Below, in pieces: positions 1-684 of a stretch of 64,000 bases of DNA; position 1 is the first letter of the stretch; each line of letters starts with the position of its first letter. Under the pieces are notes generated by a model. That model saw only the letters and a list, made by a program, of their open reading frames with translations, was not told the origin of the DNA and searched no databases. The translations under genes were made by a program, and so were the position numbers. The stretch is from NCBI RefSeq assembly GCF_003334815.1, contig NZ_QOWO01000023.1. The stretch is one strand, 5' to 3'. Source of the DNA: Escherichia coli (GTDB lineage Bacteria > Pseudomonadota > Gammaproteobacteria > Enterobacterales > Enterobacteriaceae).

Positions 1-16
1 CCTTCCCCCACCACCA
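1..16 (+). repeat. 3' terminal 16 nt of a tRNA-Tyr-type sequence (ccttcccccaccacca) cut by the window start; part of the tyrT-locus repeat array or a further tRNA-Tyr copy
   Basis: Identical to the last 16 nt of both complete tRNA-Tyr genes and of the repeat units ending at 310 and 608; followed by the same 34-nt spacer that precedes both tRNAs. Confidence 0.6.
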
Positions 17-50
17 TCTCAAGCATTACCTCAAAATTTGAATTACCCCT

Positions 51-135
51 GGTGGGGTTCCCGAGCGGCCAAAGGGAGCAGACTGTAAATCTGCCGTCAT
101 CGACTTCGAAGGTTCGAATCCTTCCCCCACCACCA
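51..135 (+). tRNA. tyrT: tRNA-Tyr (anticodon GUA), 85 nt, genome-encoded CCA
   Basis: Sequence GGTGGGGTTCCCGAGCGGCCAAAGGGAGCAGACTGTAAATCTGCC...CCACCA is the canonical E. coli tRNA-Tyr with long variable arm; tyrT versus tyrV naming is by transcription order and uncertain. Confidence 0.9.
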
Positions 136-310
136 TAATTCACCACAGCGATGTGGTAACTTCGGTGAGATTGTGAAAGTTTGCACTCATCGGGGAAGGG
201 TGAGAACCTTCGACTAAGGTTCGATTCGAGCGAAAGCGAGAGAACGTTGCCACAGGCAACGGCCCGAAGGGTGAGGAGCGAAGCGACGAATAATCCTTCC
301 CCCACCACCA
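136..310 (+). repeat. tyrT-locus repeat unit (~175 bp) ending in a copy of the tRNA 3' terminal 19 nt
   Basis: Second half (from ggggaagg to ccaccacca) is homologous to 430-608; ends with aatccttcccccaccacca. Confidence 0.8.
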
Positions 311-344
311 TCTCAAGCATTACCTCAAAATTTGAATTACCCCT

Positions 345-429
345 GGTGGGGTTCCCGAGCGGCCAAAGGGAGCAGACTGTAAATCTGCCGTCATCGACTT
401 CGAAGGTTCGAATCCTTCCCCCACCACCA
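345..429 (+). tRNA. tyrV: tRNA-Tyr (anticodon GUA), 85 nt, identical to the copy at 51-135
   Basis: 100 percent identical 85-nt sequence; start-to-start spacing to the first copy is 294 bp. Confidence 0.9.
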
Positions 430-608
430 TCACTTTCAAAAGTCCCTGAACTTCCCAACGAATCCGCAATTAAATATTCTGCCCATGCGGGGAAGGATGA
501 GAAGCTTCGACTAAGGTTCGGCTCGAGCGTCAGCGAGAGAGCGTTGCCGCAGGCAACGACCCGAAGGGCGAAGCGCGCAGCGCTGAGTAATCCTTCCCCC
601 ACCACCAT
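430..608 (+). repeat. tyrT-locus repeat unit (~179 bp) ending in the tRNA 3' terminal 19 nt; corresponds to the rtT RNA / tpr region of the tyrT operon
   Basis: Homologous to 136-310; literature describes 178-bp repeats distal to the tRNA-Tyr genes; exact rtT and tpr boundaries not determinable here. Confidence 0.7.
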
Positions 609-684
609 CGCTTCCTTAAATAATCAAAACCTGTTACTCCGAGCTAATTTTGCCCGATGGCACCACGTTTACCGGGCCTACAAT

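Follow-up and report, generated by a model that had tools for sequence, protein, structure and literature searches.

The first 607 nucleotides of the window—the whole 64,000-nucleotide stretch of Escherichia coli DNA analysed here—consist of tRNA-Tyr genes alternating with repeat units, and this arrangement raises the question of what the array is, whether it extends upstream of the first letter, and whether the long open frame that runs through it is a gene. We put at about 90% the probability that positions 1 to 607 are the distal part of the E. coli tyrT operon, a tRNA-Tyr/RtT array in which neither the long open reading frame nor the small tpr frame is functional.

Layout and identity of the array

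The 16-mer CCTTCCCCCACCACCA occurs in five exact copies on the + strand, at positions 1, 120, 295, 414, and 592, compared to 0.01 copies expected by chance and with none of 100 shuffled sequences reaching five. Successive copies lie 119, 175, 119, and 178 nt apart. Self-alignment finds 1-136 to be 100% identical to 295-430 (294-bp spacing) and 191-312 to be 87% identical to 488-609 (297-bp spacing). The features of the array and its downstream flank are as follows:

1-16, + strand: 3' end of an upstream element, cut by the window start (identity of 1-136 to 295-430)
17-50, + strand: 34-nt intergenic spacer, the 5' leader of the next tRNA-Tyr (identical to 311-344)
51-135, + strand: tRNA-Tyr(GTA), 85 nt, CCA encoded (ARAGORN; Rfam tRNA, 53.4 bits)
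136-310, + strand: A-type repeat unit, 175 nt, with RtT core at 179-310 (Rfam RF00391, 132.9 bits; identical to the K-12 inter-tRNA unit)
181-783, + strand: mechanical open reading frame, 200 aa, TTG start, frame 1 (ORF scan; judged a by-product, not a gene)
311-344, + strand: second copy of the 34-nt spacer/tRNA leader (identical to 17-50)
345-429, + strand: second, identical tRNA-Tyr(GTA) gene (ARAGORN; Rfam)
430-607, + strand: B-type repeat unit, 178 nt (Rfam RF00391, 133.8 bits at 476-607; unit alignment)
437-607, + strand: predicted RtT RNA of the B unit (homology to K-12 rttR)
497-586, + strand: homologue of the K-12 tpr frame, frame 2, broken by TAA at 512-514, codon 6 (translation MRSFD*GSARAS...; position of K-12 tpr)
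666-710, no strand: REP-like inverted repeat, downstream of the last RtT unit and before the narI terminator (17-nt arms at 666-682 and 694-710, 76% complementary; region 641-730)
751-772, - strand: intrinsic terminator of the convergent narGHJI operon (terminator scan)
791-1468, - strand: narI, convergent, marking the downstream limit of the array (ORF; RefSeq annotation of homologous loci)

About 180 nt separate the B unit from narI, and the resemblance of the inverted repeat in this gap to REP/BIME elements was judged by eye only. Spacer 17-50 has the motif "agcattacc..cccc" in common with the promoter-proximal leader of the corresponding locus in strain GF124.3 (positions 2497-2510 of that stretch).

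Both tRNA genes fold into a cloverleaf with a GTA anticodon and a long variable arm, and both repeat units lie downstream of a tRNA-Tyr on the same strand and end in the tRNA's own 3' terminal sequence. The two window units match the model of Rfam family RF00391 (RtT) end to end (1-130 of 130), scoring about 133 bits where the gathering score is 45. Weaker E-value matches to sX4, STnc100, RsmY, and a plastid 3'UTR family were dismissed, as their scores fell far below gathering. The same order, RtT downstream of tRNA-Tyr on one strand, holds at 81 of 98 Enterobacterales loci, and most of the others are cut by contig ends. The region is matched in all 5,426 of 5,426 complete E. coli genomes, and in those inspected the RefSeq gene order is purU, tRNA-Tyr, "RtT sRNA, processed from tyrT transcript", and convergent narI. 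The corresponding K-12 MG1655 features are tyrT, tyrV, rttR, and tpr (b1231, b1230, b4425, and b1229), of which rttR (171 nt) starts 8 nt past the tRNA CCA and ends at the CCA of its unit. The window thus agrees with the preliminary description, made from the letters alone, in its assignment to the tyrT locus with rtT-type repeats, in the five copies alternating at 119 and about 177 bp, and in the order of repeat unit, 34-nt spacer, and tRNA-Tyr, twice, followed by a final unit (16-mer positions, ARAGORN, and self-alignment).

Compared to the K-12 tyrT operon, the window shares the genes and flanks (purU upstream, narI convergent downstream), the tRNA, the A unit, the spacer, and the 19-nt 3' end. 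However, MG1655 has two tRNA-Tyr genes and three B units, while the window has a single B unit and at least three tRNA-Tyr genes, two of them visible and one implied; its B unit moreover carries the codon-6 stop of the second K-12 B unit, so that unlike K-12 it has no intact tpr. The locus is established biology, present here as a rare allele; it has been described since 1978-1991 and is recognised automatically by annotation pipelines, and there is little new biology in it.

The preliminary description had also claimed that the array extends upstream of the window, and the context of the spacer in other E. coli loci supports this. Sequences following a tRNA begin taattcacc... or tcactttc..., and those following an A unit begin tctcaagcattacc..., which is the spacer. 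Throughout the E. coli genomes compared, a spacer of the 17-50 type is always preceded by an A unit (K-12, ML35, GF124.3, and FORC 064) or directly by a tRNA-Tyr (E2 and EC1, neither of which has an A unit at the locus). Since the A unit itself follows a tRNA, a third tRNA-Tyr gene would lie upstream of the window either way. As for the element that ends at 1-16, which had been left as the end of either a unit or a tRNA, both arrangements occur in E. coli, and it is most likely the end of an A-type RtT unit, alternatively of a tRNA-Tyr gene. The A unit is favoured because 3 SNPs, at 512, 521, and 530, are the only differences between window 1-1200 and the three-copy array of GF124.3 (positions 2755-3954 of its locus). 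That 1-16 should instead close a tRNA-Tyr gene, giving tRNA/34-nt spacer/tRNA as in E2 and EC1, seems improbable to us: of the E. coli genomes in an even-step sample, roughly half do have the spacer directly behind tRNA-Tyr, and Y-Y-R(n) is the commonest order in other Enterobacterales (Y, tRNA-Tyr; sp, spacer; A/B, RtT unit types), but the tRNA/spacer/tRNA genomes inspected have no A unit, while the window has one at 136-310 and is otherwise the same as the A-sp-tRNA-A-sp-tRNA-B array of GF124.3. The order Y-sp-Y-A that such a start would imply was found in none of the genomes inspected, though these were not searched specifically for it.

Open frames across the repeats

A stop-free run of 204 codons starts at position 169 on the + strand, and the 200-codon frame within it (181-783) passes through the A unit, the spacer, the second tRNA gene, and the B unit before continuing for 176 nt more. 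Its product would consist of 11% Arg, 14% Ser, and 10% Pro, so that the open Arg/Ser/Pro-rich frame across tRNA and repeats reported in the preliminary description exists mechanically. Its suggested kinship with tpr fails, as the tpr homologue at 497-586 lies in frame 2 and the long frame in frame 1, and the long frame is better read as the by-product of repeat periodicity that was offered there as a fallback, given an unconserved frame, no codon-position signal, and no NCBIfam match to the product.

We give almost no credence to the idea that 181-783 is a genuine gene for a basic protein rich in Arg, Ser, and Pro, with translation running through the repeats and a tRNA gene. In its favour, only 1.6% of dinucleotide shuffles of 1-790 contain a run this long (at least 200 codons without a stop), and 66 of 108 homologous units have no stop in the corresponding frame. 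However, the frame contains an entire tRNA gene as well as two RtT units that are in phase with each other (297-bp offset), which means that the open run is not composed of independent codons. The minus strand is likewise stop-free for 191 codons here and for up to 297 in O157:H7 F1273, and the longest + strand run differs by strain architecture between 131 and 204 codons. Of 109 distinct homologous units (lengths 113 to 123, mostly 120 or 121), 54 carry a 1-nt indel that the other 55 lack, and the frame downstream of it is therefore not conserved. Column variability by codon position is 0.45/0.49/0.40, with no third-position excess in either frame, and PGAP places no CDS over the homologous region in the RefSeq genomes inspected. 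The run is somewhat long, yet its length does not count as evidence for a gene, and nothing in these comparisons favours translation of the frame. The K-12 legacy gene ychS, annotated on the opposite strand across the repeats, is probably the same sort of by-product.

The small frame tpr is annotated inside rttR in K-12, and its intact form of 29 codons is kept in the first K-12 B unit and in the B unit that ends the arrays of ML35 and GF124.3. If the window followed K-12 in this respect, its B unit would encode Tpr (29 aa) and RtT would chiefly be the mRNA of this peptide, which we consider very improbable. No intact tpr was found in the visible array: the ATG frame of the B unit ends at codon 6, and in the A unit the tpr position shows GTG and two stops. 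A scan for the RtT core over the genomes of 100,044 species returned 98 stretches, essentially all from Enterobacterales, and these together with the E. coli loci fetched provided 90 distinct ATG-type units. Their tpr frame stops at codon 6 in 61 cases and reaches at least 25 codons in 16, and only 17 of 84 loci (six fetched E. coli loci included) have any intact copy. In addition, the ATG and the sole SD-like purines (GGAAGG, abutting the ATG) lie inside the closing helix of the RNA (alignment columns 4-12), and Tpr has no NCBIfam match. Judging from these comparisons of sequence, tpr is not a conserved coding frame; the evidence is clear for this legacy K-12 gene, and by extension the conclusion probably holds for ychS.

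RtT as a structured RNA

An alignment of 109 RtT units was used to derive a six-helix structure, composed of the RNAalifold consensus plus one added hairpin. Its 34 pairs are formed in 97.3% of alignment cells, compared to 35-48% in slid controls, and 10 pairs are altered on both sides (106 cells), values that none of 500 shuffles reach. The covarying pairs belong to helices 3, 4, and 6. No variation occurs in helices 1 and 2, but most of their length falls within the search pattern by which the homologues were gathered, so that their invariance reflects ascertainment and is uninformative. The compensatory changes at 10 pairs argue that the unit is a structured RNA, with real covariation across Enterobacterales. 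Helix 6 (alignment columns 88-101, window region 573-586) shows such changes at all five of its pairs, with the variants GGCGC/GCGCC, AGCGC/GCGCT, GGAGC/GCTCC, and GCAGC/GCTGC, although it is imperfect in A-type units. The alignment thus supports a hairpin in a region that is unpaired in the RF00391 consensus.

Single-sequence folding yields a 10-bp closing stem GGGGAAGGAU/AUCCUUCCCC, several hairpins, and an 8-nt 3' tail CACCACCA. Compared to shuffled sequences the A unit folds with z = -2.9, but the B unit with z = -0.58 is no better than its shuffles, and the argument for structure was therefore rested on covariation rather than on folding energy.

In part of its sequence (503-522 plus 589-607), the RtT core resembles the 3' half of tRNA-Tyr, reading CTTCGA..AGGTTCGA and then AATCCTTCCCCCACCACCA, with about 75 nt inserted in what corresponds to the T loop. 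The 5' 22 nt of the core are 86% complementary to the 3' strand of the tRNA T-arm/acceptor. One of the scanned loci (L099, around 3189-3260) carries a short unit that has no T-loop insert.

These RNAs would be made together with the tRNAs. One promoter, located upstream of the window (in the near-identical GF124.3 locus the tyrT promoter is at about 2420-2470, which corresponds to a site outside the window), would drive a polycistronic precursor in which identical tRNA-Tyr(GTA) sequences alternate with RtT units of about 175-178 nt. Maturation of the tRNA 3' ends, probably by an endonuclease cut a few nucleotides past the CCA followed by exonucleolytic trimming, would also free RtT RNAs with a CCA end, and since the unit copies the terminal 19 nt of the tRNA, RtT would be matured at its 3' end like a tRNA. 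The released RNA may then fold into a multi-hairpin structure and persist as a structured RNA. Transcription presumably ends without an intrinsic terminator, with Rho acting within or after the repeats, and no terminator-like site was found on the + strand in 1-900, consistent with Rho-dependent termination. Rho-dependent termination within or after the repeats is also how transcription ends at tyrT of K-12. For K-12, processing and Rho termination are said to go back to the work of Kupper (1978), Rossi (1981), and Bosl & Kersten (1991).

3'ETS-leuZ is, as RtT would be, a stable RNA freed from a tRNA precursor by the tRNA-processing machinery, but unlike 3'ETS-leuZ, RtT occurs as repeats, each with a copy of the tRNA 3' end. 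We know of no base-pairing target or sponge role for RtT. A response to starvation that depends on relA has been claimed for it. The release of RtT from the tyrT primary transcript by processing is credited to Bosl & Kersten 1991 in a passage of PMC3318445, and the same work is cited in a passage of PMC11623569. A recent preprint calls the mode of action of RtT unknown (bioRxiv 10.1101/2024.07.17.603846), and an overexpression screen that included RttR found no phenotype for it (PMC4606813).

Probable concerted evolution and copy number

The final 19 nt, AATCCTTCCCCCACCACCA, are common to the tRNA and every RtT unit. Among the 98 Enterobacterales loci, the last 16 nt of the unit equal the tRNA-Tyr end of its own locus in 91 of 94 units, a count over loci that are not phylogenetically independent. 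The agreement extends to an A/G difference at position -7: the tRNA-Tyr and its units both have A at 48 loci, a G-type tRNA is likewise present at all 13 loci whose units are of the G type, and no locus is discordant. In the tRNA this change is compensated at acceptor position 3 (GGTGGGG versus GGCGGGG), while in RtT the position lies outside the closing stem. That it nevertheless follows the tRNA points to concerted evolution of the two ends, through unequal crossing-over or gene conversion, and not to selection acting on RtT independently.

Array architecture varies widely between the strains compared:

Y-A-sp-Y-B: ML35, Stbl4
Y-A-sp-Y-B-B-B: MG1655
Y-sp-Y-B-B(-B): EC1, E2
Y-A-A-sp-Y-B-B-B: FORC 064
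Y-A-sp-Y-A-sp-Y-B: GF124.3
Y-A-sp-Y-A-sp-Y-B-B: O157:H7 F1273
Y-A-sp-Y-A-sp-Y-B-B-B: TOP10

K-12 derivatives all differ from each other, with two tRNA-Tyr genes and three B units in MG1655, three of each in TOP10, and two and one in Stbl4. Provided that the assemblies are correct, laboratory time scales are long enough for the array to change. This polymorphism can be attributed to the perfect repeats—the 85-nt tRNA, the 19-nt common end, and the units of 175/178 nt—as substrates of recombination, and unequal crossing-over together with gene conversion between them would let tRNA and RtT copy numbers vary by strain. The variation fits the unequal crossing-over that has long been known at the tyrT locus, reportedly from the work of Russell et al. 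in 1970. Copy-number change even among K-12 cloning strains bears on tRNA-Tyr dosage and on users of the tyrT/supF locus.

The window strain seems to carry a rare allele with at least three tRNA-Tyr genes, the third predicted from the upstream context, and a single chimeric B unit. Its visible arrangement is like that of GF124.3, TOP10, XL1-Blue, XL10-Gold, Origami2(DE3), and O157:H7 F1273, in which two successive tRNA-A-spacer blocks are followed by tRNA-B. A one-piece 100% match to A-sp-tRNA-A, which needs at least three tRNA genes, was found in 5 of 5,426 complete genomes (Origami2(DE3), XL1-Blue, XL10-Gold, TOP10, and GF124.3), a lower bound that leaves variant A units such as those of O157:H7 F1273 uncounted; four of these five genomes are cloning strains. 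The same match was found in none of 60 evenly sampled E. coli genomes, and none of the 98 representative Enterobacterales loci, where Y-Y-R(n) dominates, has three tRNA-Tyr genes in the array. BLAST coverage was rejected as a count of three-copy arrays (2,297 genomes at 80% or more), as it joins non-collinear pieces and two-copy genomes also reach 100%.

Unlike those three-copy arrays, the array of the window ends in a B unit that is found exactly in 0 of 5,426 complete genomes, with a best match of 99.4% over 311-800. The genomes closest to the window overall match it at 99.9% over 25 kb, yet its array is present in none of them. The 3 SNPs that set it apart from GF124.3 and ML35 (512, 521, and 530) are exactly the variants of the second K-12 B unit. 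In the unit alignment its 5' part is of the first-unit type of K-12 and its core of the second-unit type, so that the window B unit is a recombinant.

It is tempting to combine these observations in a wider reading, which we regard as speculative and rather unlikely in its entirety. The array would then be a fast, recombination-driven dial of tRNA-Tyr dosage, with the window as a rare amplified allele of at least three genes, and RtT would be a selected, tRNA-derived structured RNA with a function of its own, made of a tRNA 3' half plus the T-loop insert, kept in step with the tRNA at its end by gene conversion, and endowed with one covarying hairpin beyond the Rfam model. On its derivation, the sequence suggests that the RtT unit may have arisen by partial duplication of the tRNA.

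In about a tenth of the even-step E. coli sample, the best match to A-sp-tRNA-A is only the tRNA of tyrU or a single tRNA, and one such tyrU match is at the thrU-tyrU-glyT-thrT-tufB locus. Some E. coli strains may have a single tRNA-Tyr gene or a diverged spacer at the tyrT locus.

Elsewhere in the window, three antitoxin RNAs of the rdlD family lie on the - strand at 16859-17994 with a 535-bp period (about 91 bits each, Rfam), presumably the known ldr/rdl long-direct-repeat toxin-antitoxin locus, and the C0299 sRNA (RF00119) is found at 56610-56688 on the - strand with 111.9 bits.
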